Shown here: positions 3,467 through 32,000 of the stretch, one piece after another
Layout: each line of letters begins with the position of its first letter
Numbering within the stretch: the stretch's first letter is position 1
Assembly (NCBI GenBank): GCA_934660865.1
Contig: CAKUIA010000006.1
Coordinates: forward strand, 78,418-110,417
Source: an uncultured Opitutales bacterium
GTDB lineage: Bacteria > Verrucomicrobiota > Verrucomicrobiia > Opitutales > Intestinicryptomonadaceae
Length of the DNA stretch: 32,000 bases
Direction of reading: 5' to 3'
Made by a program: the position numbers and the translations under genes
Notes under the pieces: model-generated
What the model saw: the letters and a program-made list of their open reading frames with translations, nothing else
Told to the model about the DNA's origin: nothing
Database searches by the model: none

Positions 3467-3478
3467 AAGGAAGAGATT

Positions 3479-3649
3479 ATGGGCATGACAATGATAGCAA
3501 CACAGACAGAAGAAGAAATCCAACGTCAAGTGCGCGTTATCAGAGATGCCGCGCGGATTATTCGCCGTAGTCGGAGTAAGACCGACGCTTTTTTAAGGGC
3601 TATCGACCCAGATCTTGATAAACGTAAGAAGGCGAAGAAAAGTAAATAA
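3479..3649 (+). CDS. small basic hypothetical protein (56 aa), not in the ORF track
   Basis: Hand-translated: MGMTMIATQTEEEIQRQVRVIRDAARIIRRSRSKTDAFLRAIDPDLDKRKKAKKSK. AAGGAAG Shine-Dalgarno lies 8 nt upstream. The stop abuts the ATG of the next gene (TAAATG). Confidence 0.4.
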   Translation: MGMTMIATQTEEEIQRQVRVIRDAARIIRRSRSKTDAFLRAIDPDLDKRKKAKKSK

Positions 3650-4297
3650 ATGAATTCTTCGCTCATACTTACTGGCTATCACGGTTGCGATATAACTACG
3701 GCATATGACGTTGTTCTGGACGGACGTTTGAATCCGAGTCGAAACACATACGACTGGCTTGGGAATGGCGTTTATTTTTGGGAAGACGATATTGAAAGAG
3801 CCTATGACTGGGCAAAATACGTTTCGGCGAATCCCAAACTTTTTCACAACAAAATAGAACATCCTTGTGTTGTCGGCGCGGTAATCGAGTTGAAAAACCA
3901 TCTTGATTTGACTATTTCAAGCGCAAGGCAGGTCGTAAGAGAAGCATACAACAACATTTCGGAAATCTACGCCGAAAAGGGTTTGGAATTGCCCAAAAAT
4001 CGCAAATCGTCAAAAGGCGATGACTATTTGAAGATTCGCGAACTCGACTGCTTGGTTATAAATTCGATAAACGAGTTTAGAAAAGCCAAGAAAGAACCGC
4101 TTATTGATGTCGTTCGAGCTCCGTTTTTGGAGGGTGAACCTCTATACGCAGGGGCTTCTTTTATGAACGAGACTCATATCCAAATTTGCGTAAAAGATCT
4201 CTCCGCAATTAGGGGATATTTTATTCCGCCGCAATTCAAGAGTATGTTTAAGAACGCAAAAATTCCGAATTGGGATAAGGTTCTCGGGGAATATTAA
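3650..4297 (+). CDS. DUF3990-like protein (215 aa)
   Basis: GYHGC...LGNGVYFWEDDIERAYDWA and the later THIQICV resemble, from memory, the DUF3990 pattern (YHGS...FGxGFYxT...A..WA...THQI). Confidence 0.55.
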   Translation: MNSSLILTGYHGCDITTAYDVVLDGRLNPSRNTYDWLGNGVYFWEDDIERAYDWAKYVSANPKLFHNKIEHPCVVGAVIELKNHLDLTISSARQVVREAYNNISEIYAEKGLELPKNRKSSKGDDYLKIRELDCLVINSINEFRKAKKEPLIDVVRAPFLEGEPLYAGASFMNETHIQICVKDLSAIRGYFIPPQFKSMFKNAKIPNWDKVLGEY

Positions 4298-4323
4298 ATT
4301 TTGACATTCCGCCGTCTTGTATG
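4298..4323 (+). promoter_or_regulatory. ATTTTGACA-N14-ATG motif copy (b)
   Basis: TTGACA at 4301-4306, spacer ttccgccgtcttgt, ATG at 4321. The spacer is nearly identical to copy (a). Follows the TAA at 4295-4297. Confidence 0.6.
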
Positions 4324-5016
4324 GAATTGCATACGGACGACAGGATTATTTCGCGACAGAGCAACTGGGTGTTCGACGAACACGTCGCGCCCGAATTCGA
4401 CAAGCACGTCAGAAAGAGCGTGCCCAATTACGTTCACGTTCAGGATTTGGCGGAGACATTTTCCGACTGGTTCACATACCCCAATTCGACTGTAATCGAC
4501 TTCGGGGCTTCCACAGGCGAAACCCTGCGCAGGATAAAACGCCGCCATTCGAAAACGATCCACCTCATAGGCTACGACAATTCGCAGGCGATGATAAATC
4601 AGGCGAAAACAAAAGGCGTAGACATCATTTTTGCCGACCTCGAAAAGCCGTTTGTTCTGCCCAATTTTTCCTACGCAGTTTCGCTTTACACATTGCAATT
4701 CCTGCGCCCAGACGCGCGGAACGCGCTGTTAAAGCGCATATTCCACAGCCTTGAAAATTGCGGCGGAATGTTTGTCGTCGAAAAAGTTCTCGGCTCAACA
4801 TCGCAAATGCAGGACATTTTGCAACAGCTCTATTGGGAAATGAAGGCAAAGAACGGCTTTTCGTCAGAACAAATCATCAACAAGGCGAAAGCCCTGCGCG
4901 GGTGTATGTATCCCAAAACCGTAGCCGACAACGAAGCGGAATTCCGCGCAATCGGGTTCAATTCGGAAATAGTTTTCAAAGAATCGCAGTTCTGCGGTTG
5001 GCTGCTTACGAAATGA
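4321..5016 (+). CDS. CmoA-like SAM-dependent methyltransferase / carboxy-SAM synthase family (231 aa)
   Basis: NWVFDEHVAPEFDKHVRKSVPNY, VIDFGASTG, YTLQFLRPDARNALLKRIFHSLENCGGMFVVEK and the C-terminal FCGWLLTK parallel E. coli CmoA ([59 protein letters not shown]), recalled from memory. Confidence 0.7.
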   Translation: MELHTDDRIISRQSNWVFDEHVAPEFDKHVRKSVPNYVHVQDLAETFSDWFTYPNSTVIDFGASTGETLRRIKRRHSKTIHLIGYDNSQAMINQAKTKGVDIIFADLEKPFVLPNFSYAVSLYTLQFLRPDARNALLKRIFHSLENCGGMFVVEKVLGSTSQMQDILQQLYWEMKAKNGFSSEQIINKAKALRGCMYPKTVADNEAEFRAIGFNSEIVFKESQFCGWLLTK

Positions 5017-6794
5017 AGCTTCTTCGGGATATTCTCAAAGACGCTTGGACGCCCGCCGACCGCCGAGAGCCTTGGCGTTGGTGCGAAGACCATATAAAAA
5101 GCATTCCGTATTCGCCGCTTCCAGGACCGTTCAGAAGCGAAAACTCGCCGTGGATTCGCGAAGTTATGGAGGCAATCGTTGACCCGAAAATCCGCCTTGT
5201 CTCGATTATCGCCGCCGTCCAAAGCTCGAAGACTACAAGTCCCGAGCTTACGCTTTGCTACATAATAGCCAACCTCCCAGGACCTTGCCTTTGGCTCGAC
5301 CAGACGGACGAAGACGCAAAAGACGAGTCGGAAAGCCGCCTGCAAAAGCTTTTTGAGAGCTGCGAGCCGGTAAAAAAGCTATTTCCAAAGAACAAAAATA
5401 AACAGCGCAACTGCACAATCCACTTTTCAAACGGAATGACGCTTTGGCTGCTGGGAGCGTATAACAAGACCAATCTCCAACGCCGTTCAATCCGCTGGCT
5501 TTTCGGAGACGAAACTTGGCGATGGCCAGTCGGACATATGGCGGAAGCGGAGGCAAGAACTACGGCTTTCGGGTGGCTCGGCAAATGCGTGTTTATGAGT
5601 CAAGGCGGAGAGGAGAACGACGACACCCACCGCAAATTTGAAACAACCGATATGCGCGAATGGCACTACAAGTGTCCCAAATGCGGCAAATACATTCCCT
5701 ACAAGTGGGAAAACATCGAGTGGGACGACGACTGCAAAGACGAAAACGGCGAATACGACTTTTCAAAAATCAACCATTCAACAGCCTTGAAATGTCCCGA
5801 ATGCGGGGAGTATTTTGAGGATTCCGACAGAATGAGGCGCATTCTCAACAAGGACGGAAAGTTTATCGCGCTCAATCCGAATGCTTCAAAAGAAAACGTG
5901 GGCTTCCATTGGAATGCGCTCGCTTCGATGAGTTGGGGCAAGCTTGCCGAGCTTTACCTTCGCGCGAAAATTGCCGCAAGAAAGGGCGACAGCTCTTTGC
6001 TGCAACAATTCTACCAGAAACGCCTTGCTCTTGCTTGGAGGGAATTTGCCGAAGACTACCGCCTTGAAATCGCCTCTGGCAGCTATAATTCGGGGGACGT
6101 TTGGGATGAGGAAGCGGGCTTCAACAAGCTCGGTGAAATCATCGCCCCGCCTTTTGCCGAAAACGAGGTTATCGCGCCGCTTCGCATAATGTCGGTTGAT
6201 GTTCAGATGAACTGCTTTTACTTGGTTGTCCGCGCTTGGAGCATTAACGGTTCGAGTCGTCTTCTATGGCACGAAAAGGTACTGACGTGGGAAGACATCG
6301 AGGAAATCCAAAAGCGTTTTAAAATTTTGGACAACCTTGTATTTGTCGACGCGGGGTATAATTCGTTTGAAGTCTACAAGCATTGCGGGGAGCGGAATTG
6401 GATTGCGCTTATGGGCGACAACAGGGCGAACTTCTTTCACAGACTTCCGAACGGCAAGACGGTTTTGCGCTTTTACTCTCCCGTAAAGCACATATTTATT
6501 TCGCGCTACGTTAAGTGCCGTATGCACTTTTGGAGCAACCTCAACGTAAAAGACACTTTGGCGAGAATCAGGCGAAACCAGAATCCTGCCGACGGCGCAA
6601 CTTGGGAAGTGCCGACGGATATTTCCGAAGACTACTTAAAGCAAATGGAGTCCGAACACCGCATTAAAAAGGGCAACTCGTGGATATGGGAGCAAATCGG
6701 CAACCGCCCCAACCACTACCTCGACTGCGAAGCTATGAACTGCGCAGGAGCGTTGATGTTGAAGATTGTGGGGAACAATGGTTTATATAGTTAA
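5013..6794 (+). CDS. terminase large subunit, GpA (lambda-like) family
   Basis: Walker-A-like AAVQSSKTT and paired zinc-ribbon motifs CPKCGK...CPECGE, as in GpA-family terminases. Size about 593 aa. Position immediately upstream of gpW-like and portal genes. Start taken at ATG 5013, which overlaps the stop of 4321..5016. Confidence 0.85.
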   Translation: MKLLRDILKDAWTPADRREPWRWCEDHIKSIPYSPLPGPFRSENSPWIREVMEAIVDPKIRLVSIIAAVQSSKTTSPELTLCYIIANLPGPCLWLDQTDEDAKDESESRLQKLFESCEPVKKLFPKNKNKQRNCTIHFSNGMTLWLLGAYNKTNLQRRSIRWLFGDETWRWPVGHMAEAEARTTAFGWLGKCVFMSQGGEENDDTHRKFETTDMREWHYKCPKCGKYIPYKWENIEWDDDCKDENGEYDFSKINHSTALKCPECGEYFEDSDRMRRILNKDGKFIALNPNASKENVGFHWNALASMSWGKLAELYLRAKIAARKGDSSLLQQFYQKRLALAWREFAEDYRLEIASGSYNSGDVWDEEAGFNKLGEIIAPPFAENEVIAPLRIMSVDVQMNCFYLVVRAWSINGSSRLLWHEKVLTWEDIEEIQKRFKILDNLVFVDAGYNSFEVYKHCGERNWIALMGDNRANFFHRLPNGKTVLRFYSPVKHIFISRYVKCRMHFWSNLNVKDTLARIRRNQNPADGATWEVPTDISEDYLKQMESEHRIKKGNSWIWEQIGNRPNHYLDCEAMNCAGALMLKIVGNNGLYS

Positions 6795-8020
6795 ATAATT
6801 TCTCCTCGAAAATAATCTTTTATTATTTTTATATATTTATTTGGGATTCCTAGCCTTTCTCTAAACAAATTTTTCACAGGTACAGGATTTGGATTTAATA
6901 TGATTATATTTGGATATTTAGTCTTTTTGCAAAAAGCCTTTTTTAATAAATCAATTGCTCTTATATCAGTGATGGGGAAAGAGTATCCAATTACATATAT
7001 TGATTCTGCTTTACTTAAATCAGATTCAGCATATTCCCATAAATTTTTAAATAATTTGCCCCAAAAATTATAACTTTTATTTTTGACTGGAGGGATAATC
7101 AGTGGAGTACTTGGCATTCCATCACTAGGATAATTACTTTCAGGAATCCAAGGAAATTTCGGTCTTACCCTGATAATAAGCCGATCTTTAGGTGCTGTTT
7201 TTCCTTTGTCTGATAAAATATTTGGGGGATAATATCCCATAGAAAAAGGAGCATATCCTTCCATATATCTACCCGCGTACGCAGGATAAGGTTTAGTTGC
7301 GTATTCATATATCCAAACTGAATCATTTGGAGATTCTTGTATTAGTTTAAAATCTTTTGCTTCTTGATCATAGTACATAGGAGAAGTGAGCCAATTTGTT
7401 GAGCCATGTAACTTTATTAATTTTGGGGATTGTTTGAAGCTGTTTTGAGGCAACAGCCATTTATCTCGATATATACCACAAGGCGAAAAACCATATCCAA
7501 AGTCTGTTTCCCAATCAGTATCTTCTTGTAAGGCTCGATCCAATAAAGTATCCCAATTAAATGTTATTATAGTATCATCTGTATTTATTTTTTTTAAAAA
7601 TAATCTATGTGCTTTTGATGTTGGTCCATTTTGAATTTCATTTATAATCGATGAAAAAAAATAAACCAATTGTTGATAAGTTTTTGTCAATATAAGCAAC
7701 TCGCTGGAAATATGTTCGCAATTTTGATCCTTTTCAATTAAGGTAAGCATTTTATATTCAATCGCAGAGTGAATTTTCTCAATATCTAAATCTCCTTTAA
7801 AAACTGATTCGATAGGAACATTTCTGGTCTTATGTAAATAATTCACGATGTCACCGATTATAACCCAAGGGTTTTGTGATATATTTAATTTTTCAAAGGT
7901 AGAAAAAACCTCTGTTGCCAATGGCATTTTTTGACCAGATAAGGATTCACCATAAGACTTAGATGCTCCAGCTCCCAATATATATACATTCATTTCATTA
8001 TTTAAGTTCAATGGATACAT
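6791..8020 (-). CDS. SIR2-like (SIR2_2 type) domain protein, stand-alone
   Basis: YILGAGASKSYG (N-terminal glycine motif), IITFNWDTLLD (TTNYD-like, Asn retained), LIKLHGSTNW (catalytic His) and YVIGYSFPITD. AT-rich, on the opposite strand to the phage genes. Start at ATG 8020 or 7993; the track's 8068 start would run through the gpW promoter motif. Confidence 0.8.
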   Translation of the reverse strand: MYPLNLNNEMNVYILGAGASKSYGESLSGQKMPLATEVFSTFEKLNISQNPWVIIGDIVNYLHKTRNVPIESVFKGDLDIEKIHSAIEYKMLTLIEKDQNCEHISSELLILTKTYQQLVYFFSSIINEIQNGPTSKAHRLFLKKINTDDTIITFNWDTLLDRALQEDTDWETDFGYGFSPCGIYRDKWLLPQNSFKQSPKLIKLHGSTNWLTSPMYYDQEAKDFKLIQESPNDSVWIYEYATKPYPAYAGRYMEGYAPFSMGYYPPNILSDKGKTAPKDRLIIRVRPKFPWIPESNYPSDGMPSTPLIIPPVKNKSYNFWGKLFKNLWEYAESDLSKAESIYVIGYSFPITDIRAIDLLKKAFCKKTKYPNIIILNPNPVPVKNLFRERLGIPNKYIKIIKDYFRGEII

Positions 8021-8033
8021 GTAAATTACTCGA

Positions 8034-8063
8034 ATTTTTTTGACAAGTTTTATTCTTATCATG
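8034..8063 (+). promoter_or_regulatory. ATTTTTTTGACA-N15-ATG motif copy (g)
   Basis: TTGACA at 8040-8045, 15-nt spacer with no Shine-Dalgarno, ATG at 8061. Confidence 0.55.
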
Positions 8064-8318
8064 TCCAATTACATTTACACACGCGGGTATACTGTGGCGG
8101 AGCTTGAGGCTTTGCTTGTTCGGGTAAAAGCCGAGCGCGAAAAGTATCTTCAATCGGCTTCCGATAGCGGAAGCTCGTATTCACGCATCGCGCTTTCGGA
8201 AATCGAGAAGAAGTTCAACGGCATAATGGACGCGTTGGAGCTTCTCGCGCCCGAAAAATACCCCAAAACAAACCGCCGAATTTCCCTTAGCGGCGTAGTA
8301 GGAGGAGTTATCCAATGA
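8061..8318 (+). CDS. gpW-like head-tail joining protein (85 aa)
   Basis: Small protein between the GpA terminase and a lambda-family portal, the position of lambda W. Helical AELEALLVRVKAEREKYL ... SEIEKKFNGIMDALELL pattern. ATGA overlap with the portal gene. Confidence 0.5.
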   Translation: MSNYIYTRGYTVAELEALLVRVKAEREKYLQSASDSGSSYSRIALSEIEKKFNGIMDALELLAPEKYPKTNRRISLSGVVGGVIQ

Positions 8319-12444: not shown

Positions 12445-12903
12445 CTATGATACTCGAAAGTTTTTCGCAGAAGTTGGTGTAATCTGAAATATAATCCCAT
12501 CGTGCCTAATCAAATACAGCACATTTAGGGAGTCATTTGTTATTAGAATATCGTCCGATGATGGATACCAAATATACTTAAAATAGTCGCAGAAATCCGC
12601 ATAATTAAAAATATCCATAGGGCATTCATAACCCCATATAACGATTATATTATCGGATTGGTCAGATAGTAGATTCAAAGACTTGATAGAAAAGTCTTCT
12701 GATGTTGCGTCCGTATTTTCAATATATTTTCCAGCTTCCTGAACTTTGTTAAAATCAGATATATCTAAATTATAACGCAACGACAGTTTTCTTGTAATCG
12801 ATTCGCTTTCCTTTTTTGATAATGTATTGAATGAAGGAAATTTCGATTGTGTTTCATTTTCAAATATTGAAATTTTGAATGAGTCCACTCTTCTTATCCC
12901 CAA
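12445..12903 (-). CDS. hypothetical protein (about 147-152 aa), third gene of the Phd/PIN operon
   Basis: AT-rich ORF starting 12 nt after the PIN stop. It has no in-frame ATG near its 5' end, so it must use TTG 12903 or GTG 12888. No motif recognised. Confidence 0.5.
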   Translation of the reverse strand: MGIRRVDSFKISIFENETQSKFPSFNTLSKKESESITRKLSLRYNLDISDFNKVQEAGKYIENTDATSEDFSIKSLNLLSDQSDNIIVIWGYECPMDIFNYADFCDYFKYIWYPSSDDILITNDSLNVLYLIRHDGIIFQITPTSAKNFRVS

Positions 12904-12915
12904 TTTCGTTTGCCT

Positions 12916-13317
12916 TTACAAAAACTCCAACGCTTCGGCGGGAGAAAGAACCGTTATGCCGAGCTTTTTCATAAGCGGTTTGGGATAGTGTTTTGCATTT
13001 CCCGTAACGATTATTTTATCCTGCGTTGCAAGTGCCGCTTCTATGAAAATTTTGTCGTCAATATCGGGAAGTTCTTCGGAAATATGCACGGGTTCTATCG
13101 GGTCAGTTCCCATTAAATCCACAAGAAATATGTTTACGCATTCCTCGGTGAGGTGAAATCGCGGGCGGGACAAAACTTCGAGATATTCGCAGATTATTCG
13201 GTTGTCGTAAACCGCTGTAAAATTTTCGCCCATTTTCGACATCAGCAAATGCGGCGAACCGTTTGTGCTCAAAAACGCCGAAACAACGACATTTGTATCA
13301 ATTACAAAAGTCTTCAT
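12916..13317 (-). CDS. PIN-domain toxin (VapC-like)
   Basis: Starts MKTFVIDTNVVVSAF (first acidic PIN residue). Later acidic residues in PDIDDKIFIEAA, and TGNAKHY. 133 aa. Overlaps the upstream antitoxin by 4 nt. Confidence 0.8.
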   Translation of the reverse strand: MKTFVIDTNVVVSAFLSTNGSPHLLMSKMGENFTAVYDNRIICEYLEVLSRPRFHLTEECVNIFLVDLMGTDPIEPVHISEELPDIDDKIFIEAALATQDKIIVTGNAKHYPKPLMKKLGITVLSPAEALEFL

Positions 13318-15192: not shown

Positions 15193-15218
15193 ATTTGACA
15201 TCATACATGACTATAATG
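15193..15218 (+). promoter_or_regulatory. ATTTGACA-N15-ATG motif copy (h)
   Basis: TTGACA at 15195-15200, 15-nt spacer, ATG at 15216. An in-frame ATG also exists at 15207. Confidence 0.45.
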
Positions 15219-16118
15219 AAAAGGAAGTATAAAGTCGTATTAGGTCTTTTAGCGGCCTTTGGAGGGAAATTGTCCCGAAAGTACATGCAAAAGCTTGTAT
15301 TCTTGTTTTGCGAACGTAATGATTCTTCGTTGTTTACGTTCATTCCTTTTCGCTATGGGTGTTTTTCCGAAGAATTAGCAACCCTCCAAGAAAGTTTTAT
15401 TCAGGACGGATACTTGAAGAAAAACGAATTGTGGGAACTGTCAGACAAGGGAAGAAAACAAACCGTCGATATAGATCTGTTTGATTCGGAAGCCATAGAA
15501 AAATTAACTCGTCGTTTTGGAACACTTACAGAATCTGAAATCATAAAATATGTATACCAAACTCATCCGTATTATGCTATAAATAGCGTAATTTTGGATA
15601 AGATATTATCTCCAGAAGAGCAGAAACCGATACTACAGTTAAAGCGAAAATTAAAAAACGAAATAGACAACAAAAAAATTGTAAGTATCGGATATGAAGG
15701 ATACACAATAGACGATTATATAAAAATGCTTTTGGATAATCGAGTAAAAGTTTTATGTGATGTTAGAAAAAATCCAATAAGCCGCAAAAAAGGATTTTCG
15801 AAATCTGCTCTGTCATTTGCCTTGGAAAAATTGCACATAACTTACTATCATTTTCCCGAATTAGGAATTCCGTCAAACATGCGACAGAAGTTGGTTTCTC
15901 AGGAAGATTACGATAATCTTTTCTGTTTCTATGAAAAAAATATTTTATCTAAAAATTTTTCATACATAGAAGAAATTTCCTCTTTTCTTGACAAATTTGG
16001 AACGGTTGCGCTGTTATGCTTTGAAAAAAATCCTAATCAATGCCATAGGACGCGTATCGTTAATAGAATTCTTGAATACAGAGAAAACGATGTAAAGGCG
16101 ATTACGTCATGTCAGTAA
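15216..16118 (+). CDS. winged-helix-like N-terminal domain fused to a DUF488 domain
   Basis: C-terminal half has IVSIGYEGYTIDDYIKML..VKVLCDVRKNPISRKKGFSK..L...L....ITYYHFPELG ... ALLCFEKNPNQCHRTRI, which is the DUF488 pattern as I recall it. The N-terminus ends in DGYLKKNELWELSDKGRK, which is wing-like. AT-rich. Confidence 0.7.
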   Translation: MKRKYKVVLGLLAAFGGKLSRKYMQKLVFLFCERNDSSLFTFIPFRYGCFSEELATLQESFIQDGYLKKNELWELSDKGRKQTVDIDLFDSEAIEKLTRRFGTLTESEIIKYVYQTHPYYAINSVILDKILSPEEQKPILQLKRKLKNEIDNKKIVSIGYEGYTIDDYIKMLLDNRVKVLCDVRKNPISRKKGFSKSALSFALEKLHITYYHFPELGIPSNMRQKLVSQEDYDNLFCFYEKNILSKNFSYIEEISSFLDKFGTVALLCFEKNPNQCHRTRIVNRILEYRENDVKAITSCQ

Positions 16119-16939
16119 GTAAGAAAAGGATTTTTATAACGGTTAAAACTTACCCAAATCCATCAGCCTCATATGTTGAGACTGTTTGTACCGCAGGGAT
16201 TATTGAAAATGAAGGGTGGATTAGATTATATCCAATACCTTTTAGGGTATCGGACGAATACAAACAATTTAAAAAATACCAGTGGATTACTGTCGATGTT
16301 GTAAAAAGACCAGCTTCTTCCTCAGATAGACGTCCTGAAAGTTTCTCTCCGCAAGCAGGAACAATGAAATTGGGAAATATAATACCGAGCTCCTCAGATG
16401 CACGAAAAGATATTATATTCAAAAACACGAGAACTTATAATGATTTTGAAGAAATCTTCAAATTGGCAAGAGAATTTAAGATTTCATTAGCGACATTTAA
16501 GGCAACGCAAATACTTGATTTCTATGTAGAGCCAGTAAAAGAAAGAGATTGGACTCCCGAAGAACAGTCAAAATTGCGCAGAGAATTTTGCCAAGAAGAT
16601 TTATTTTCCGATTCACATCTTAGGGCTTCAAATTTACGAAAACTTCCATACAAGTTTAAATTTAAATTAGAAGATATAAAAGGGAAAATATCAAATATGA
16701 TGATAGAAGATTGGGAAGTCGGTGCGTTGTATTGGAATGTCTATAATTCAACAAAATCAGAGGAACAAGCGGTTAAGGCGGTAATTGATAAATATACATC
16801 TATATATAAGGAACAAGATTGTACTTTCTTTTTAGGCACTGTGAATAAAAACCAAAATATCAAAGCTCCAAATCCTTTTGTGATAATTGGACTTTTTCAC
16901 ACGCAAAAAACATTACAAACAGTTTTTAGTTTCGAATAG
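16109..16939 (+). CDS. hypothetical protein (276 aa), partner of the DUF488 gene
   Basis: Overlaps the upstream gene by 10 nt. N-terminus is ITVKTYPNPSASYVETVCTAGIIENEGWIRLYPIPFR. I cannot assign a named family. Confidence 0.6.
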   Translation: MSVSKKRIFITVKTYPNPSASYVETVCTAGIIENEGWIRLYPIPFRVSDEYKQFKKYQWITVDVVKRPASSSDRRPESFSPQAGTMKLGNIIPSSSDARKDIIFKNTRTYNDFEEIFKLAREFKISLATFKATQILDFYVEPVKERDWTPEEQSKLRREFCQEDLFSDSHLRASNLRKLPYKFKFKLEDIKGKISNMMIEDWEVGALYWNVYNSTKSEEQAVKAVIDKYTSIYKEQDCTFFLGTVNKNQNIKAPNPFVIIGLFHTQKTLQTVFSFE

Positions 16940-23634: not shown

Positions 23635-23659
23635 TTTTGACACCCCAGCTTCTTGTATG
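23634..23659 (+). promoter_or_regulatory. ATTTTGACA-N14-ATG motif copy (e)
   Basis: TTGACA at 23637-23642, spacer ccccagcttcttgt, ATG at 23657. Follows the TGA at 23632-23634. Confidence 0.6.
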
Positions 23660-25870
23660 ACTCTTTTTATAGACGTTGAGAACAAGAAGCTTGTCCAGAG
23701 TTTGACTTCCGACAGGAGCGTGTCCGCGCCCGTATTTATGCAGGGCGACAACGAGCCGCTCGAAATCTTCCTCCTCCAAAAGGGCGAAGAATCGCTTTAC
23801 GAGGTAAAGCCGCTTGTAGTCGGCACCGACTTTCTGCGGGTTGCGATTGCGCGTTTCAAGGGCTATCCCAAATCACTCACCTATACGGCAGGCTACACGT
23901 TGAATCCGAACGGCGGTGCGGAAGTGGTGTTGCCGTTAAACACAACGGCAATCGAAAACGCCGTTCAGGAGAGCGAATACATCACCGCCTTCTTGGAGGT
24001 GGAATACTCCGACACTGCGGGCAGAATCGTTACGATTTTACAGACCGCCTGCCGCGTAAAAAACGACCTCATAGAAAACGCGCCCGCAGTCGAACTTCAA
24101 GAGCAGTTCTACGACAGGGTTTATACCGACACCGTCTTCTCGAAGAAATCAGCCAATCTTTCGGACTTGGCGGACAAGTCGGCTTCGAGGAAGAACCTCG
24201 ATGTCTACGCAAAAGGCGAAGTTTACAACAAATCGCAAATCGACGCGCAGGAGGCAAAGAACCTCAAAAAAGCTTCAAACCTTGCGGATGTTGCCGACAA
24301 ATCAGCAGCAAGAACAAATCTCGACGTTCCGCAAAAGCGCGACCTGTTCAAATATATGAAGTGCGGAATATGGTCGGACACCTCGTTGTCCGTTCCCTCG
24401 GAATACGGCGCAACGCTCGGCGACGACTTCGTGGCGGGAAATTGCTCGACATTCCTTACAATCTACCTGCCCGAACCGACCGCCTATTACACGCAGCTCT
24501 ACGCCATTTCATACGCAGACAGCGGAATGTTCATTCCCGAAATTTCCGCAGACGGCAAAACGCTGAAATTGGGCTACATCTATCGGGAAAGCGAAAGCGG
24601 CGGTTCGGAAATTGTCGAGCGGACGGCGGCGATTTCAAAGGCAATCGAATACGGCGACAGTATCGCGCTCACCGTCGACGGCAGGAATTTCAAGCTATAC
24701 AAGGGCATCGAGCTTGTTTCCTCGGGCGTAATTCCCGACGAACTTTCCATAACGGGCGCGTCTTCGTTCTTGGGCTGGAAAGGCTTGAAGCAGGTTATGG
24801 CGTATTCGAATTCGCTTCTGTTGCCGCTTACGGCAAGCGAAGGCAAGACCGCGAAAATCAACTATTCTATTGAGGATTTCGCAAACGGCAATTTCCCGCC
24901 AAAGGGCATTCTGAATTCGCGCTACAATTATTTCAGAAGCACGTTCGCAAGCTCGTTTACGCGCAACAGCTCGCATTCGAAAGGCGTCGGCGGCGCGGAA
25001 ATCGGCGGCAAAAAGAACGCGCTGAAAATTTCGCTCATGCCCGACAGCTACAACGCGTCGCACGAATACGAGCTACCCTCAAAGTATTTTAGTGGCAACG
25101 GAATGCTGCACAAAATCAGGTTCTTGATTTACCTGCCGACGACAAACCCGAACATCACGAAAGTCCAGCTGAGGCTCGGCAGCATTGCGCCCGCAAGCGC
25201 GGGGACGATAGTTTCAAAGACCGACAACATCGACAAGTCGGGCATGATTCTGCCCAAGGACGAATGGCAGACCGTGGAAATGATACTCACGCTTAAATGG
25301 TCGGGTTCGTTCAAGCTCTATTTGTATAAGGGAAGCAACTCGTATTTCAAACTCGAGGAGGAATCGACCGACGCAGTTTATCTGCATTCGATTACCTGCT
25401 CGTGTTTGCAGGGTTTCGAGGGCTTTTTCTACGGAGCGGGAAGTTCGGGATTTTGGAAGAACTACGGCGCGTCGAGCAGGGATTTGGCGTTTTACGGGTG
25501 GTCGCTGCCGTTCGAGGGAAACGGGAACTATACGAAGCACATTGCGGTTTCGTCGTTTTCGAGCACGACGTATCTTTACGCGGAGGGCTTCCCGACGGGC
25601 TTGGAGCTTTCGCAGATTGTCCTGCGCTTCGATTCCGAGCTGCCCGACACTTCAAGTGCCGAAGACGAAATCCAAAAGAACGTCTTCCGACTGAGAACGA
25701 ACGACGACACGGTTTGCGAGGAGCAGCTTCCCGCGATTCCCGCCAACAGGCCTTATTACATATACCCCAAGCGCGGACTTCCCGAACTCTACTATTCGCT
25801 GGAAATTGCGCCGATGTATGCGTGCAACTGCGGCGGCTCGGTCGATTTAATTTTCACAAAGGTTAGTTAA
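23657..25870 (+). CDS. tail fibre / receptor-binding protein (737 aa)
   Basis: Contains two copies of the phage fibre motif (SANLSDLADKSASRKNLDV and ASNLADVADKSAARTNLDV). Large size and late position. Confidence 0.75.
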   Translation: MTLFIDVENKKLVQSLTSDRSVSAPVFMQGDNEPLEIFLLQKGEESLYEVKPLVVGTDFLRVAIARFKGYPKSLTYTAGYTLNPNGGAEVVLPLNTTAIENAVQESEYITAFLEVEYSDTAGRIVTILQTACRVKNDLIENAPAVELQEQFYDRVYTDTVFSKKSANLSDLADKSASRKNLDVYAKGEVYNKSQIDAQEAKNLKKASNLADVADKSAARTNLDVPQKRDLFKYMKCGIWSDTSLSVPSEYGATLGDDFVAGNCSTFLTIYLPEPTAYYTQLYAISYADSGMFIPEISADGKTLKLGYIYRESESGGSEIVERTAAISKAIEYGDSIALTVDGRNFKLYKGIELVSSGVIPDELSITGASSFLGWKGLKQVMAYSNSLLLPLTASEGKTAKINYSIEDFANGNFPPKGILNSRYNYFRSTFASSFTRNSSHSKGVGGAEIGGKKNALKISLMPDSYNASHEYELPSKYFSGNGMLHKIRFLIYLPTTNPNITKVQLRLGSIAPASAGTIVSKTDNIDKSGMILPKDEWQTVEMILTLKWSGSFKLYLYKGSNSYFKLEEESTDAVYLHSITCSCLQGFEGFFYGAGSSGFWKNYGASSRDLAFYGWSLPFEGNGNYTKHIAVSSFSSTTYLYAEGFPTGLELSQIVLRFDSELPDTSSAEDEIQKNVFRLRTNDDTVCEEQLPAIPANRPYYIYPKRGLPELYYSLEIAPMYACNCGGSVDLIFTKVS
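24149..24328 (+). repeat. two copies of the NL(S/A)D(L/V)ADKSA(S/A)R.NLDV fibre motif
   Basis: Residues about 165-224 of the fibre protein; direct peptide repeat about 40 residues apart. Confidence 0.7.
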
Positions 25871-26808: not shown

Positions 26809-26833
26809 AAAGCCCCGATACGGGGCTTTTTTT
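26809..26833. terminator. bidirectional Rho-independent terminator
   Basis: AAAGCCCCG-ATA-CGGGGCTTT followed by TTTTT on the + strand, with an A-rich left flank. Lies between convergent genes. Confidence 0.8.
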
Positions 26834-26837
26834 GTTG

Positions 26838-27428
26838 TCAGACAAGATGTTTTCGTTTTATGAAATTATATAGAGTAGAACGACTAACGCCAAATTTTTC
26901 TCGAATAGAACGTTTGGATTTCCCATCGCGAATCAATGTTTGGATTTCTTCCTCTCTTCCTTTTAGTTTTAAGAAAAAATCCTTAGGTTTCCCAAGTCTA
27001 TGACCTTCGGCTTTTTTTCTTGCCAATGCTTCTTTCGTTCTTGCCGAAATCAATTTTCTTTCTATTTCAGCAGACAACCCAAATGCAAATGCGAGGACCT
27101 TTGAGTTTAAATTATCTCCAAGTTCATAATTTTCCTTTATGGCTATAATCTTTAAGCCATTTTCCATAGAATAATGGAGTATACTCATTATGTTAAGTAG
27201 ATCTCGCCCTAATCTCGAAATTTCGGATACAATCAGTGTGTCGTGATTTTTCATTCGTTTAAGAAGTTTTCCGAGCTTTCTATCCGCAGCTTTTTTTGCG
27301 CCACTTACAGTTTCCTCAACCCATTTTTCAACAGAAATAGAGTGCCTCGAGCAATATTCCTCTATTTCAAATTGCTGATTTTTAATTGTCTGTTTGTCTG
27401 TGCTTATTCTGATATATGCGTAATTCAT
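26838..27428 (-). CDS. small serine recombinase (resolvase/invertase family, 196 aa)
   Basis: N-terminal YAYIRISTDKQ (catalytic Ser context), VSEISRLGRD, and a C-terminal helix-turn-helix (RSIREKFGVSRSTLYNFIKR). Size is typical of Hin/Gin/Tn3-resolvase-type enzymes. Confidence 0.85.
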   Translation of the reverse strand: MNYAYIRISTDKQTIKNQQFEIEEYCSRHSISVEKWVEETVSGAKKAADRKLGKLLKRMKNHDTLIVSEISRLGRDLLNIMSILHYSMENGLKIIAIKENYELGDNLNSKVLAFAFGLSAEIERKLISARTKEALARKKAEGHRLGKPKDFFLKLKGREEEIQTLIRDGKSKRSIREKFGVSRSTLYNFIKRKHLV

Positions 27429-27496
27429 AATTAAATTTAATCAAATTTTGCCCAACTAAGGCTTGACCTTTATTCGTTTCGGAGGTATCAATAAAG

Positions 27497-27506
27497 GGTC
27501 GTTAAT
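27497..27506. repeat. left inverted repeat GGTCGTTAAT
   Basis: Perfect reverse complement of 27630-27639, and 13/15 when extended leftwards. Lies in a 26-bp dyad TAAAGG-N14-CCTTTA (27492-27517). Confidence 0.75.
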
Positions 27507-27629
27507 CGGTTCCTTTAAATTAGCCATGATTGTCAAAAATAGAATTTTTATTTTTAGCGCATATTGCCGTTAACTTCCAGCATAACAGCCAATTAAAACT
27601 ATTCGTAATTTTGGCGTGAGTATGTCTTA
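27507..27629. promoter_or_regulatory. candidate invertible segment (123 bp) carrying an ATG and a TTTTTGACA box on the minus strand
   Basis: Bounded by the 10-bp inverted repeats. Minus strand reads ...ctatttttgacaatcATGgctaatttaaaggaaccg up to the left repeat. Confidence 0.6.
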
Positions 27630-27639
27630 ATTAACGACC
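27630..27639. repeat. right inverted repeat ATTAACGACC
   Basis: Reverse complement of 27497-27506. Lies inside the methyltransferase reading frame (codons I-N-D). Confidence 0.75.
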
Positions 27640-28745
27640 GTTCAGCAGAACATCCCCCAAAACGGAATAACCCAAAGGTAGTCTCTCTGTTTTCTGGTTG
27701 TGGCGGACTCGATTTAGGATTTCACCTCGAAGGATATAATACGATTTGGGCAAATGACTTTAATCATTTTGCCTGCGAAACATTTCGAAAAAATTTTGGC
27801 GATGTTATCGTTGAAGGAGATATTGAAAATATTGATCCCAAAAAAGATGTTCCTGATTGCGATATTATTTTAGGCGGATTCCCTTGTCAGGATTTTTCAT
27901 TATTGTGGAAGCAACCTGGACTGAATGGTGAACGTGGAAATTTGTATAAAAGTTTTCTTCGATTCATTGATGCAAAAAAACCAAAAGCGTTCGTAGCAGA
28001 AAATGTGAAAGGATTATTAACTGCGAACAAAGGTAAAGCGATTCGACAAATTTTACATGATTTTGAATCGATTGAGCCTGGATATGTTGTAATTCCAAAG
28101 CTTTATAATTTTGCGGAATACGGAGTCCCCCAATTTCGGGAAAGGGTTTTGTTTGTTGGAATTCGAGTGGATTTGGGCTTTAAATTTTCCCACCCAATGC
28201 CCTCAAACGGGCCGTGTACAAGTAATCCCTATGTTTCGGTAGGGAAAGCATTAAAAGATGTTGAGAAAGTTAAATACAACAATGAACATATGAATATAAC
28301 AGAAAAAACTCGTTCTTTGTTGGCTCTTATCCCTGAAGGAGGTAATTTTACAGATGTTCCCAAAGATAGCCCTTTATATGTCAAGGGTATGATAAGTCAT
28401 GTGTATAGGCGTATAAAAAGAGATGAACCTTCAAAAACAATAATTGCAGCAGGTGGCGGTGGAACATGGGGCTATCATTATCCAGAGCCAAGACCGTTAA
28501 CGAATAGAGAAAGAGCAAGAATTCAATCTTTTCCAGATAATTTTATTTTTGAAGGCAGTGTTGCTGAAGTAAGACGCCAAATAGGGAATGCGGTTCCTCC
28601 CCAAGGCGTTAGAGCTTTAGCGAGAACTTTAATGCCTTTGTTCTTAGGCGACTACAAGAAAGTCGATTTATACGAAATCCGAAACTCAATCGTGAATACG
28701 AACATTGATGACAGGATAAAAAATATAACGGCACGAGGTAAATGA
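27630..28745 (+). CDS. DNA (cytosine-5)-methyltransferase; no canonical start codon in the sequenced orientation
   Basis: Motif I SLFSGCGGLDLG (27684-), motif IV GGFPCQDFS (27873-27899), ENV (FVAENVKG), QFRER and GNAVPP are all in one frame, which is open from 27609. There is no ATG, GTG or TTG in that frame before TTG 27903, which lies after motif IV. Confidence 0.85.
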   Translation: MNDRSAEHPPKRNNPKVVSLFSGCGGLDLGFHLEGYNTIWANDFNHFACETFRKNFGDVIVEGDIENIDPKKDVPDCDIILGGFPCQDFSLLWKQPGLNGERGNLYKSFLRFIDAKKPKAFVAENVKGLLTANKGKAIRQILHDFESIEPGYVVIPKLYNFAEYGVPQFRERVLFVGIRVDLGFKFSHPMPSNGPCTSNPYVSVGKALKDVEKVKYNNEHMNITEKTRSLLALIPEGGNFTDVPKDSPLYVKGMISHVYRRIKRDEPSKTIIAAGGGGTWGYHYPEPRPLTNRERARIQSFPDNFIFEGSVAEVRRQIGNAVPPQGVRALARTLMPLFLGDYKKVDLYEIRNSIVNTNIDDRIKNITARGK

Positions 28746-29788
28746 TGGAGCTTTTAGTTTCTTCTGAATTGTCTGATTTTAGCGCAAAAACATCTTCGCA
28801 GCGATTGTATTGCAAAAAATGCTTGGAAGATTGTGTTCAATTTAATGTCGCGACAGGATATATTTCAAGTGAATCAATTCTTTCATTAAAAAGCATTATA
28901 GAACGAAATCCTACTCCAAATGTAAACATCTTCATAGGAATGCATTATCTGGAGTCATTTACGGAAACACAATATAAGTCTGTTTCTCGTTTAAATGAAA
29001 CATTAACAAATATGAATCGTGGAATGGTCTATTTGTCGCCACGTTTAAAATTTCACGGGAAAATGTATTCGTTCGAAAGGGACAACCAATGCTTTTCTGC
29101 AAGTGTAGGGTCTTCGAATTTTGGCAGCTTTCTTTGTGGCTCAAACGATGTATGCGAAATTGATTCTGTTTATTCAGGAGAAGCTGCAACTCTAATCGAC
29201 AACAAAATAAAAGCTCTAATAAAGGCTCTCGGGGTTCCATTTTCTGAACTATCACAACCACAATTCACACCAGAACTTCCTCTTTTAGATGGTCATTTTG
29301 GAGTAAAGAAATTGCCAGACGGGACTTTCAATTCCTATTCGATGAAGACTACAGGTCGCAGGTTTCCTATTCCGCTAAAAACAGAAGCAAAAAGTAATTT
29401 AAATGCATATTTTGGGAAGGGACGAGAAAATAAAAAACGTGGATTTATTATACCTCGTCCATGGTATGAAGTAGAACTTATAGTTCCCAAAAGTATCACA
29501 TCATTGGACGGTTATCCGCGGAATGATAGTTTCAATGTTATAACAAAAGAAAACTATTCTTTTGAATGTGAAACAAATGGCGATTATGCAAAAAATTTCA
29601 GATCTTCAAAAGATTTAAAAATTCTCGGGAAATATATAAAAGGGAATATGGAATCAAGTCGTGCGTTGGAAATAGGAAATCCCGTCGACGATAAGGTTCT
29701 TTCCGATTTTGGCTACAACTCAATAGTGCTAAGCGAAACGACTGCCCCGAAAACATGGCTATTAGATTTTGGAAACAATGAGCAATAA
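28742..29788 (+). CDS. PLD-superfamily restriction endonuclease (NgoFVII-like)
   Basis: KFHGKMYSF...SASVGSSNF resembles the HxK...GSxN motif of PLD-type nucleases. ATGA overlap with the methyltransferase stop. Confidence 0.65.
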   Translation: MMELLVSSELSDFSAKTSSQRLYCKKCLEDCVQFNVATGYISSESILSLKSIIERNPTPNVNIFIGMHYLESFTETQYKSVSRLNETLTNMNRGMVYLSPRLKFHGKMYSFERDNQCFSASVGSSNFGSFLCGSNDVCEIDSVYSGEAATLIDNKIKALIKALGVPFSELSQPQFTPELPLLDGHFGVKKLPDGTFNSYSMKTTGRRFPIPLKTEAKSNLNAYFGKGRENKKRGFIIPRPWYEVELIVPKSITSLDGYPRNDSFNVITKENYSFECETNGDYAKNFRSSKDLKILGKYIKGNMESSRALEIGNPVDDKVLSDFGYNSIVLSETTAPKTWLLDFGNNEQ

Positions 29789-31664
29789 ATATTTCGATTC
29801 CTATTTATCAACGCTGAATTCTGAAGAATTAAAAAGTTCTATAAAAGAGACCTCGGCGGAATTTTTAGACAAAATTTCAACATATGATGGTTCTTCGCAT
29901 TTAGGCGGATTGCTGCTTGGGAATGTCCAATCAGGGAAAACAGGTCAAATGTTAGGTATAATTTCAGCAATGGCCGACAATGGATACAAGTTGTTTTTGC
30001 TCTTAACCACAGATAATATTTACTTACAAGAACAAACCGAAAAAAGAGCACGAAATTCTTTGGTTAATTTTTGTGTAATTGGAGAGCGAAATAACATAGA
30101 TTTTTATAAGTGTGCATTAAAAAAACCTACCATAATAATTTTGAAAAAGAACTCTCGAATCTTAAAAAATTGGAGAAATAACATAGCAAGTACAAATTAT
30201 GCTAAAGAGAATCCTGTTGTTGTATTCGATGACGAAGCAGATGCAGCAAGCCTTAACACCAGAATTAACTCACATTCTACAAGTTCCATAAATTCCAACT
30301 TAAAATCAATATTATCATTGGCAAAAGGTAGTATTTATATTCAAGTTACCGCAACTCCGCAGGCCATTCTTTTGCAAACAAAAGAATCTGGCTGGAAACC
30401 GTCTTTTGTCGTATACTTCAAACCTGGAGAAAAATATTTGGGCGGAGATTTCTTTTATTCTACGCCACCGCCATATTGCATAAGGTTTACAGACGAAGAA
30501 GAACTTGATGAAATTAGAGGAGAAGATAGTTATATCACCATTGGGCTTCGTAAATCTTTATATGCTTATTTAATTACAACCGCCCATTTTTATTTAAAGG
30601 GGATTGATACTTGCAATTTTGTTATTCATCCGAGCGTTAGAATTAAAGATCATGATACATTTGCTAAGAAAATTGGCGAACATCTTAATCTTTTATTAGC
30701 CAGTATAGACGATGAAAATGTATTAAAAGAATTGTCTGATGCGTGGTCGGATTTACAAAAAACGAAACCCGACATTGAAAATTTTGAAGATATTTTTTCT
30801 GCAATTAAAACGCTATTGTCAGACCAGTTAATTATACCGATTGTTTTGAATTCAACCACTCCTATAGATGTAAATTACGGGACTGGGTATAATATCGTAA
30901 TAGGTGGAAATACCTTGGGTAGAGGAATCACACTCCCGAGATTACAAACAATTTACTATTGTAGAAAGTCGAAAACACCGCAGGCAGACACATATTGGCA
31001 GCATTCAAGAATTTTTGGATATGACAGGGATCCTGGATTGGTTAGGATTTTTATTCCCCAAACATTATATCAGTTGTTTTCAGAGCTAAATAGTTCAAAC
31101 AGGAATATAATAAACCAAATACACGATAAAGGCATTGAAGGAATTCAAGTTCTATTACCTCCAGGAATAAATCCCACAAGAAAAAATGTTATAGATAAAA
31201 GCGCACTCAGCATTATAGCTGGTGGCGTTAATTATTTCCCTTTGTGTCCAAATGAGAAAGAAAATGTTGAGTTAGATTCTGCGTTAAACGAATATTCAGA
31301 AGAAGAACTGTCGTATCAGGTGGAAATAGAGGAAGTAATTTCTATATTAGAAAAATTCAATGAAACAAACGACAATTTTATGTCGCGTTTTATAAATTGT
31401 ATAAGGGCATTGCGTGATAAACGCCCAATTGTGAAATGTAGACTTATAGTTCGAAGGGAACGCGATATTGGAAAAGGAACAGGGACACTATTATCTCAAA
31501 CTGATAGAGAACTCGGAGATTCCTTCTCGGAAGACATAACGTTGACTTTATACAAGATAGTTGGTTCCATAGAAAAAGGGTGGCAAGGAAAGCCATTTTG
31601 GATTCCCAATATAAAACTTCCAAGCGATATTTGTTATTACGACTCGTCTGGTTATTTTATTTAA
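29778..31664 (+). CDS. Z1-domain P-loop protein
   Basis: GNVQSGKTGQMLGIISAMADNGYKLFLLLTTDNIYLQEQT (Walker A context), VVFDDEADAAS (Walker B), IQVTATPQA and GGNTLGRGITL match the Z1 family as I recall it. Overlaps the nuclease gene by 11 nt. Confidence 0.75.
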   Translation: MSNKYFDSYLSTLNSEELKSSIKETSAEFLDKISTYDGSSHLGGLLLGNVQSGKTGQMLGIISAMADNGYKLFLLLTTDNIYLQEQTEKRARNSLVNFCVIGERNNIDFYKCALKKPTIIILKKNSRILKNWRNNIASTNYAKENPVVVFDDEADAASLNTRINSHSTSSINSNLKSILSLAKGSIYIQVTATPQAILLQTKESGWKPSFVVYFKPGEKYLGGDFFYSTPPPYCIRFTDEEELDEIRGEDSYITIGLRKSLYAYLITTAHFYLKGIDTCNFVIHPSVRIKDHDTFAKKIGEHLNLLLASIDDENVLKELSDAWSDLQKTKPDIENFEDIFSAIKTLLSDQLIIPIVLNSTTPIDVNYGTGYNIVIGGNTLGRGITLPRLQTIYYCRKSKTPQADTYWQHSRIFGYDRDPGLVRIFIPQTLYQLFSELNSSNRNIINQIHDKGIEGIQVLLPPGINPTRKNVIDKSALSIIAGGVNYFPLCPNEKENVELDSALNEYSEEELSYQVEIEEVISILEKFNETNDNFMSRFINCIRALRDKRPIVKCRLIVRRERDIGKGTGTLLSQTDRELGDSFSEDITLTLYKIVGSIEKGWQGKPFWIPNIKLPSDICYYDSSGYFI

Positions 31665-31801
31665 AGAATATACCTTACGCTCTTACAATAAATCCAGCAA
31701 CTAAAATGCAACTCTGCGATAATTCCATTGGCAATTTATGCTGATTTGCAAATAGTTGCGATTGTGTCAGCTTCCCTCCCTCTCCGCCAGTTTTTAAGCG
31801 T

Positions 31802-31839
31802 AAAAGGCAGATTTGCATTAAGTTGCAAATCTGCCTTTT
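31802..31839. terminator. perfect 16-bp-stem hairpin, probable bidirectional terminator
   Basis: AAAAGGCAGATTTGCA-TTAAGT-TGCAAATCTGCCTTTT. The T-run forms part of the 3' arm and the A-run part of the 5' arm. Confidence 0.65.
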
Positions 31840-32000
31840 CTTATGGCACAACACCCCTGTTTGTAAATGCTTCATCATCAGGGTTCAACTGGTGCGTTTC
31901 ACGCTCAGATGTGCGACCAAACAAGGGTCAACCCCAAAGGTTGTGGAATAAGGTTTTTTTTGTAATTTGTTTTTCATAGTTTTATTCCGCATTCTACGAG

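Follow-up and report, generated by a model that had tools for sequence, protein, structure and literature searches.

How can a DNA methyltransferase gene be read when the start codon for its conserved part is missing? The question is raised by a 32,000-nt stretch of a contig from an uncultured Opitutales bacterium (CAKUIA010000006.1, positions 78,418 to 110,417; hereafter the window), in which a serine recombinase gene and a restriction-modification (RM) operon led by a 5-methylcytosine (m5C) methyltransferase lie side by side within prophage DNA. We give a probability of about 85% to the answer that an active site-specific inversion switch governs the start of the methyltransferase gene. Four genes are concerned:

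26838-27428, minus strand: predicted serine DNA invertase gene of the Mpi family, 196 aa (Pfam, NCBIfam and structural relatives)
27609-28745, plus strand: body of the m5C DNA methyltransferase gene, without a start as sequenced (Pfam DNA_methylase, E 2e-78; TIGR00675 dcm; PADLOC MTase_II, 390 bits)
28742-29788, plus strand: NgoFVII-like restriction endonuclease gene with PLD and B3-like domains (Pfam RE_NgoFVII and RE_NgoFVII_C; PADLOC REase_II, 293 bits)
29769-31664, plus strand: gene of a Z1/helicase-domain protein, the third of the operon (Pfam Z1 and ResIII; PADLOC Helicase_II, 754 bits, full length)

The methyltransferase frame is open from 27609, directly after an in-frame TAA (27606-27608), and contains no ATG, GTG or TTG before TTG 27903. 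Motifs I (FSGCGG) and IV (PCQ, within GFPCQDFS) both lie upstream of this TTG, and the gene-caller product that starts there comprises 280 aa without either motif. The only candidate codons in frame before motif I are ATT 27630 and CTG 27687. An earlier note, made from the letters of this stretch, had pointed out the missing start and had placed the ATG, in inverted orientation, between a repeat pair next to the recombinase gene. The pair is present: GGTCGTTAAT (27497-27506) and ATTAACGACC (27630-27639) form a 10/10 inverted match (12/13 and 13/15 when extended) with 123 bp between them. As the note had foreseen, flipping the segment in silico yields an in-frame ATG and a methyltransferase of 378 aa beginning with MANLKEPINDRSAEH. 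In the orientation of the window, which we call OFF, the same ATG opens a short open reading frame (ORF) instead:

27456-27527, minus strand: 23-codon ORF MANLKEPINDPLLIPPKRIKVKP, with the displaced ATG at 27527-27525 and the stop TAG at 27458-27456; present in the OFF state only

On the strand that it shares with the invertase gene, this ORF runs toward that gene and stops 27 nt short of its ATG. The note had described it correctly except for the position of its ATG, given as 27528. The likeness of its tail to the 5' codons of the methyltransferase, said to continue for about 40 bp, is marginal: its local score of 17 was attained in 55 of 2000 shuffles as well, and in 22 of 356 windows taken from the real cassette.

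The flipped arrangement occurs in nature. When the reconstructed ON protein was used as a query, it matched P0001, which has 378 aa, 97% identity over 100% of the length and the same N-terminal sequence. Its contig (L001), from a human-gut metagenome, has the invertase/methyltransferase/nuclease layout of the window and is 96.3% identical to the window flipped in silico, in comparison to 63.8% for the window as sequenced. According to the cluster tables, full-length ON forms of 378 aa comprise four variants (P0001, P0121-P0123) on 13 contigs, and truncated OFF-type gene calls of 267-280 aa were found on at least 60 contigs. We fetched nine ON loci (L001, L014-L021) and 13 OFF loci (L002, L004-L013, L022, L108), the window itself being a further OFF copy. 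In all nine ON loci the segment is reverse-complemented at 98-99% identity between collinear flanks. A 24-mer from the fixed right flank led to two more OFF loci in JGI metagenomes and had no match in GTDB genomes or IMG/VR.

It might be held that the ON contigs are assembly artefacts in which a repeat-flanked segment has been mis-oriented, given that the comparative data consist throughout of metagenome assemblies and that several ON contigs are short (2.5-3.4 kb). This is implausible because the repeat (10-13 nt) is far below the assembly k-mers (k99-k141). In addition, the ON contigs stem from more than one study and assembler, with lengths of up to 29 kb, and a single-nucleotide polymorphism (SNP) in the repeat arm shifts to the mirror position, as a true inversion predicts. 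We consider such an artefact virtually excluded.

Both orientations are found within single strains. The fixed flanks of 2.8 kb contain 75 variable columns among the loci other than the window, and three flank haplotypes appear in both states: L005 (OFF) with L014-L017 (ON), L011 (OFF) with L018 (ON), and L013 (OFF) with L021 (ON). The closest comparison is that of L005 with L014/L015, where 5604 and 7116 bp on the two sides match except for the two arm-SNP positions, and the 146 bp in between are inverted. These loci share their chromosomal neighbours and their sample accessions are adjacent (ERZ27253612 to ERZ27253618), so that the samples probably belong to one study. Because three haplotypes each occur in both orientations, the inversion is recurrent.

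Selection on the cassette was measured as the ratio of nonsynonymous to synonymous substitution rates (dN/dS) between the lineage of the window and the other loci, with dS of approximately 0.1-0.2. All four genes are under purifying selection (dN/dS 0.02-0.11). The values are 0.06-0.11 for the 5' part of the methyltransferase, which is untranslatable in the OFF state, 0.09-0.11 for its remainder, 0.05-0.08 for the nuclease, 0.07-0.10 for the helicase-domain protein and 0.02-0.04 for the invertase. Nuclease and invertase are intact in all loci with full coverage, a terminal truncation of the invertase in L018 excepted.

These data bear on the alternative offered in the earlier note, namely that a single historical inversion pseudogenised the methyltransferase and that the locus is a decaying remnant. 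The greater number of OFF contigs and a split helicase gene in the OFF locus L010 would fit such a history. Against it stand the three haplotypes that are each found in both states, the pair that is identical over 12.7 kb apart from the flip, the constraint on a methyltransferase part that the OFF state cannot translate, and the intact nuclease and invertase genes. Since purifying selection and recurrent states speak against it together, we reject the one-off inversion, which we consider extremely improbable. The reversible, recombinase-associated toggle between OFF and ON that the note had proposed is borne out by the natural ON copies with the predicted junctions and by the same haplotype and selection data.

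Where does the exchange take place? Two marker positions in the arms of the repeat behave differently upon inversion. Ten OFF loci have A at 27501, which gives GGTCATTAAT on the left and ATTAACGACC on the right; nine out of nine ON loci have GGTCGTTAAT on the left and, with T at 27635, ATTAATGACC on the right. Thus, the SNP at 27501/27635 changes arm with orientation in 19 of 19 informative loci, and it does so also within the identical-strain pair L005/L014. The mismatch at 27496/27640, in contrast, stays in place regardless of orientation. As one position travels and the other is fixed, the crossover must lie within GGTC 27497-27500 and GACC 27636-27639. This leads to the following elements:

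27486-27511, plus strand: left recombination site in a 26-bp model, TATCAATAAAGG-GT-CGTTAATCGGTT, with the GT core at 27498-27499 and the repeat arm at 27494-27506
27501-27635, no strand assigned: minimal invertible segment, 135 bp shown to invert, or 137 bp (27500-27636) under the GT-core model
27625-27650, minus strand: right recombination site in the same model, TTCTGCTGAACG-GT-CGTTAATTAAGA, with the core at 27637-27638 (AC on the plus strand) and the arm at 27630-27642

The right site lies in codons 6-14 of the methyltransferase, with its arm in codons 8-12, in an N-terminal extension upstream of motif I, and the left arm is intergenic. With one arm in coding sequence, the other between genes, and both orientations observed, the element is a partial intergenic inverton. 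The moving DNA carries the ATG and codons 1-9 of the methyltransferase. The earlier note had assumed a mobile segment of 123 bp with seven codons, and this needs to be replaced by approximately 137 bp with nine codons. The TAAAGG-N14-CCTTTA dyad that the note had described around the left repeat is present, as is a third CCTTTA (27467-27472), but the SNP mapping shows that the central AA of this dyad (27504-27505) is not the crossover.

The 2-bp core GT at 27498-27499 (and 27637-27638) is most likely the point of strand exchange. It is the centre of the SNP-mapped interval, and it was located by aligning the sequence AATAAACC-AA-CGTTAAT of a related locus (L023, see below) with AATAAAGG-GT-CGTTAAT of the window. 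Eight half-sites, from the window and L023, give the consensus TnTnnATnAACG. These half-sites presumably resemble those of hix and gix (…AAAAC[CG]-NN-…). The repeat consensus of the Bacteroides fragilis invertase Mpi would be ARACGTWCGT, a sequence that Patrick et al. 2010 does not print.

Similar sites accompany other invertases of this family. The core motif [AT]AAC[GC]NN[GC]GTT[AT] occurs within 450 nt upstream of 7 out of 74 related invertase genes, with about 0.8 expected, mostly near position -100. L048 shows a near-perfect dyad, TCTAACAAAAACG-GT-CGTTTTCATTAGA, and both L048 and L087 carry AACG-GT-CGTT. In L087, from a Prevotellaceae metagenome-assembled genome (MAG), two inverted copies with exactly the AACG-AC/GT-CGTT core of the window bracket the invertase gene beside a SusC-like gene (positions 3950-5140); the core of the right site in the window, AACGACCGTT, is identical to the L087 site. 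No other copy of the recombination site was found in the 32-kb window. A further Mpi-family relative, L064, has its own inverted site pair (positions 2136-3925), with a segment of about 1.75 kb beside a gene fragment similar to the C-terminus of an RM specificity or methylase gene. The site pairs of L087 and L064 probably represent further invertons.

One locus, L003, departs from the common arrangement at the right site. Here a mobA gene of the Bacteroidales type, cut within the gene and missing approximately 63 N-terminal codons, is fused to the RM cassette, which is present from 5 nt inside the right-site core onward (positions 5488-5760; window-equivalent 27632 onward). L003 has neither the invertase nor the invertible segment. 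The mobA gene of B. fragilis has GT at the position equivalent to the junction, and the fusion may have arisen by recombination at the site, or else the assembly may be chimeric. A 20-mer match to the junction in L109 proved coincidental.

The enzyme most likely to act on these sites is encoded by a gene that starts 66-69 bp from the left repeat arm, in good agreement with the earlier note, which had put the start of the 196-aa serine recombinase about 70 bp away. The gene product matches Pfam Resolvase with residues 3-143 (E 1e-32) and HTH_7 with residues 158-187. It scores 274.5 bits against NCBIfam NF009949, "master DNA invertase Mpi family", over residues 1-194 of 196, a narrow margin above the cut-off of 272. 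Its best relatives of solved structure are the Gin chains 4m6f and 3uj3 (E 1e-13, low identity), followed by the gamma-delta and Tn3 resolvases. The segment YIRISTDKQ aligns with YVRVSTNDQ of Gin, i.e., with the catalytic-serine motif YxRxSTxxQ, and this motif is invariant between the window and L023. Judged from these matches, the recombinase is a predicted Mpi-family serine DNA invertase, and its adjacency and family membership suggest that it would catalyse the flip. In the ON locus L018 the invertase gene (positions 2506-3096; window-equivalent 26838-27428) has a premature stop, R192*, five codons from the C-terminus. The resulting protein of 191 aa (P0326, 3 contigs) could be partly disabled, which would stabilise the ON state.

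A second lineage has the same design, with the start codon on the segment. It consists of L023, a metagenome contig, and L024, a MAG from sheep rumen, whose invertase and methyltransferase are 57% and 80% identical to those of the window and which share a divergent layout of the invertase and the methyltransferase-nuclease-Z1 genes. Among 83 loci with Mpi-family invertases, L024 alone carries the RM module. In L023 the ATG lies on 107 bp between the arms of a 24-nt repeat (22/24), the right arm being in codons 13-21. Outside the part that encodes the site, the two lineages have unrelated N-terminal peptides. When the flip of L023 is simulated, no canonical start remains before codon 59, which is beyond motif I, and a 17-codon ORF facing the invertase appears. 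Two truncated matches that came into question as OFF copies of this lineage were discarded: P0138 (L107) is an unrelated 5'-deleted remnant without an invertase, and P0139 (L108) is an OFF copy of the window's own family.

What does the switch control? PADLOC assigns methyltransferase, nuclease and helicase to the standard Type II trio MTase_II, REase_II and Helicase_II, each in full length. The genes overlap: the methyltransferase stop and the nuclease ATG share ATGA 28742-28745, and the nuclease and helicase genes overlap at 29769-29788. The three genes form a predicted Type II RM operon of methyltransferase, restriction nuclease and helicase (M-R-helicase). The specificity of NgoFVII itself is GCSGC. 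In L010 the Z1/helicase gene (positions 6230-8115; window-equivalent 29769-31664) is split into calls of 264 and 307 aa, which may reflect decay of an accessory gene in that lineage.

According to the earlier note the segment delivers a promoter-like box together with the start codon, a proposal that we regard as a hypothesis. A regular-expression scan for TAnnTTTG, a -7 consensus of the Bacteroidetes type (PMC4747536), found two opposed boxes on it:

27534-27541, minus strand: TAnnTTTG -7 box TATTTTTG, ending 6 nt before the displaced ATG
27606-27613, plus strand: second -7-like box TAATTTTG, overlapping the in-frame TAA and facing the methyltransferase body in the OFF state

The first box faces the invertase in the OFF and the methyltransferase in the ON state. 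As a promoter element it is only suggestive, because TAnnTTTG is common in the cassette. Invertase expression that depends on orientation, i.e., a feedback, is possible.

Accordingly oriented elements could also mean that the switch is mainly aimed at the invertase or at the short ORF, with the RM effect being secondary. In the OFF state the ATG and TATTTTTG do point at the invertase on its own strand, with the short ORF ending just before the invertase gene, and the L023 lineage would behave alike. On the other hand, the sequence of the short ORF is not conserved between the lineages and its substitutions are not obviously synonymous, the invertase keeps its own upstream region in both states, and the position of a site in frame within the methyltransferase would be left unexplained. 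We hold this explanation to be very unlikely.

A milder alternative is that inversion tunes the operon rather than silencing it. The OFF methyltransferase would then be made from ATT 27630 or CTG 27687, or only the methyltransferase would be affected and nuclease and helicase would be expressed or silenced independently. The two codons do lie in frame upstream of motif I, and TAATTTTG faces the gene body in the OFF state. Moreover, the OFF copy L022 has gained a TTG start by one substitution, suggesting that the OFF frame can be transcribed. A nuclease without enough methyltransferase should, however, be counter-selected, yet OFF copies form the majority and their nuclease is intact and constrained. 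The same design has also been kept in a lineage with a different N-terminal sequence, which argues that removal of the start codon is its purpose. Tuning therefore seems unlikely to us. As for L022 itself, the substitution G27613T turns the in-frame TGG (27612-27614) into TTG, from which a methyltransferase of 377 aa was called (P0133, MREYVLINDRS...), and at the same time destroys the TAATTTTG box. The change might act as a suppressor, restoring translation while the segment stays unflipped.

Returning to the inversion switch, we propose the following mechanism. The invertase would exchange strands at the 2-bp GT core of two inverted 26-bp hix-like sites and thereby flip approximately 137 bp. 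In the ON orientation the ATG and nine codons are joined to the gene body, so that a 378-aa methyltransferase heads the overlapping Type II operon. In the OFF orientation of the window, the methyltransferase is left without a canonical start and the ATG opens the 23-codon ORF toward the invertase. We infer that nuclease and helicase are silenced along with the methyltransferase, by loss of a promoter borne on the segment, of translational coupling, or of both, because the OFF state is in the majority, the nuclease is intact and constrained, and its ATG overlaps the methyltransferase stop. The outcome would be a population that is heterogeneous in RM activity and DNA methylation.

Several points weigh against this switch. 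The ON/OFF pairs lie in separate assemblies, each a consensus assembly of a metagenome, and recurrent switching is deduced from haplotypes. Repeat and dyad symmetry are each no better than chance: about 17 distinct perfect 10-nt inverted pairs with a spacing of 40-400 nt occur in the 32-kb window, better inverted repeats than the switch pair exist within the same 1.2 kb, and the dyad score of 7/12 is not distinctive in such AT-rich DNA. Like the marginal flank similarity, repeat length and dyad symmetry were therefore discarded as evidence. The link from invertase to site depends on adjacency and family membership. With regard to the promoter, TAnnTTTG occurs about once per kb and strand in the cassette, the two opposing boxes complicate a simple model of a flipping promoter, and a sigma-70 promoter scan of the switch in both orientations found none. 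Should the operon be transcribed from a fixed promoter in OFF cells, it would be ambiguous what becomes of the nuclease. Finally, a search with the C-terminal 278 aa of P0002 found only ON copies of the second lineage, which is rare, and no near-identical truncated form that would mark its OFF state, in the databases searched.

A wider picture may be drawn tentatively, and we consider it doubtful as a whole. The cassette would be a bistable prophage module that supplies promoter and ATG either to the Type II RM operon (ON) or to the invertase (OFF), with a switching rate that depends on orientation. Lysogens would be hedged between a defended, methylated and an undefended, unmethylated state, and a system with a free-standing nuclease would repeatedly be re-established in an unmethylated genome without killing the cell.

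The locus shares features with several known systems. As with Hin/hix, Gin/gix and Cin/cix of Salmonella and the phages Mu and P1, the invertase gene abuts one of two inverted sites that flank the segment, the site is modelled as 26 bp with two imperfect 12-bp half-sites around a non-palindromic 2-bp core, and the locus lies in a prophage. In those systems tail-fibre C-termini are exchanged or a flagellin promoter is inverted, with the help of a required Fis-bound enhancer, whereas the target here is the 5' end of a methyltransferase gene. Mpi of B. fragilis, as described in passages of PMC4747536 and PMC5903667 that cite Coyne et al. 2003, is encoded on the chromosome and serves as a global invertase for 13 distant promoter regions of surface polysaccharides. 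The locus studied here resembles it in its small serine invertase of the same NCBIfam equivalog family, a short segment (about 100-200 bp), short inverted repeats and ON/OFF control of a downstream operon. It differs in that the invertase is borne by a prophage and lies next to a single local target within 32 kb, in that this target is an RM operon, and in that the segment carries the start codon and nine codons.

Partial intergenic invertons (Chanin et al., PMC10028968) and gene-altering programmed inversions (Milman et al., PMC9881135) have been described, and RM-related genes are an enriched target class. The element of the window agrees with these in having one arm in coding sequence, the other between genes, and an adjacent recombinase. 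In the RM cases of PMC9881135, i.e., Type I hsdS shufflons and the single-polypeptide Type IIG, BREX PglX and DISARM DrmMI enzymes, the swapping of alternative domains changes specificity. The switch reported here swaps nothing; it takes away the start codon of a classical Type II system whose nuclease is a separate protein, which leads to ON/OFF control. A phase-variable Type I inversion system is known from B. fragilis (PMC7641763). Gut metagenomes have further revealed inverton-like epigenetic phase variation, with invertons near methyltransferases and neighbouring invertases, in RM types I-III of gut Bacteroidales (PMC11741434), and invertible promoters were suggested to control silent methyltransferases (PMC10333322).

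In common with phasevarions, where Type III mod and Type I genes vary by simple repeats, the locus would be a genetic methyltransferase switch that creates heterogeneity in the population. In Type I and III systems, restriction needs the methyltransferase subunit and switching is intrinsically safe. The window, in contrast, co-encodes an independent nuclease, so that turning the system ON while the genome is unmethylated could be hazardous. In the vsa locus of Mycoplasma pulmonis, inversion by a tyrosine recombinase joins a single promoter and 5' coding end to start-less gene bodies. In the fimS/FimE system of Escherichia coli, which also uses a tyrosine recombinase, the orientation of the switch feeds back on recombinase expression. 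Both control surface structures, unlike the locus reported here, where a feedback on the invertase would be a hypothesis only. Our literature search found no description of this locus, nor of a prophage-borne ON/OFF inverton that carries the start codon for a classical Type II M-R-helicase operon with an m5C methyltransferase. The general kind, a partial intergenic inverton and phase-variable RM, is known; what stands out is the complete Type II operon on a prophage, whose free-standing nuclease would come under the switch as well. Phase-variable RM is well known for Types I and III; in this case all three genes of a classical Type II system seem to be switched together.

The locus thus offers a natural system for asking how cells survive when a Type II nuclease is re-activated after generations without methylation, whether prophages hedge defence against openness to gene transfer by inversion, and whether "silent" methyltransferase genes in gut genomes can be traced to switches of this type. 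In addition, it provides a naturally mapped crossover and a candidate site consensus for Mpi-family invertases beyond B. fragilis.

We now turn to the surroundings of the switch. The window represents a tailed prophage that encodes a ParB-like protein, large terminase, portal, head protease, major head protein, tape measure and tail fibres. The prophage is widespread in human-gut metagenomes, on dozens of contigs from several studies. A megablast of cassette and phage body against a phage collection gave no match, no tRNA is present in the 32-kb window, and the FGE-sulfatase of the flank has no named relative above approximately 62% identity. As to the host, clusters of the flank genes gave one "Verrucomicrobia bacterium" MAG name and viral-MAG labels, an Opitutales bin is a further hint, and the mob genes of L003 look Bacteroidales-like. 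The GC content is about 50% up to approximately 26.8 kb and drops to 36% in the AT-rich cassette, which lies directly past the tail-fibre and lysis genes and consists of the serine recombinase gene on the minus strand, followed by the m5C methyltransferase, NgoFVII-like nuclease and Z1/helicase genes on the plus strand. Its left border is likely marked by a bidirectional terminator:

26809-26829, no strand assigned: perfect 9-bp hairpin AAAGCCCCG-ATA-CGGGGCTTT with a T run, flanked by the last late gene of the phage and the stop codon of the invertase

The tail-fibre-like gene upstream (window 23657-25870) varies among the loci, with 737 aa in the window and either 766-768 aa or a split into 113 and 653 aa in others (L002-L021). 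No inverted-repeat site for the invertase was found at this gene. Further AT-rich islands (32-40% GC) split the structural genes of the prophage at window positions 6791-8068 (minus strand), 12445-13317 (minus strand) and 15195-16939 (plus strand). Among their genes are a 425-aa ORF that lies between terminase and portal and has a sub-threshold SIR2_2 match, a gene similar to PIN_3 toxins and its small neighbour, as well as a DUF488 gene and, after it, a 276-aa ORF without a Pfam match. These look like further accessory or defence genes.

On the right side, homology between the loci stops 120-225 bp past the Z1 stop codon (window 31786-31889; downstream parts of L002-L021). The genes beyond this point differ by locus and comprise Band_7/integrase, RHS, DUF4405/flavodoxin, HxlR and others. 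The Band_7, membrane-protein and integrase genes carry a viral MAG label in NCBI, which may mean that the cassette lies within a variable part of the prophage and not at its extreme end.

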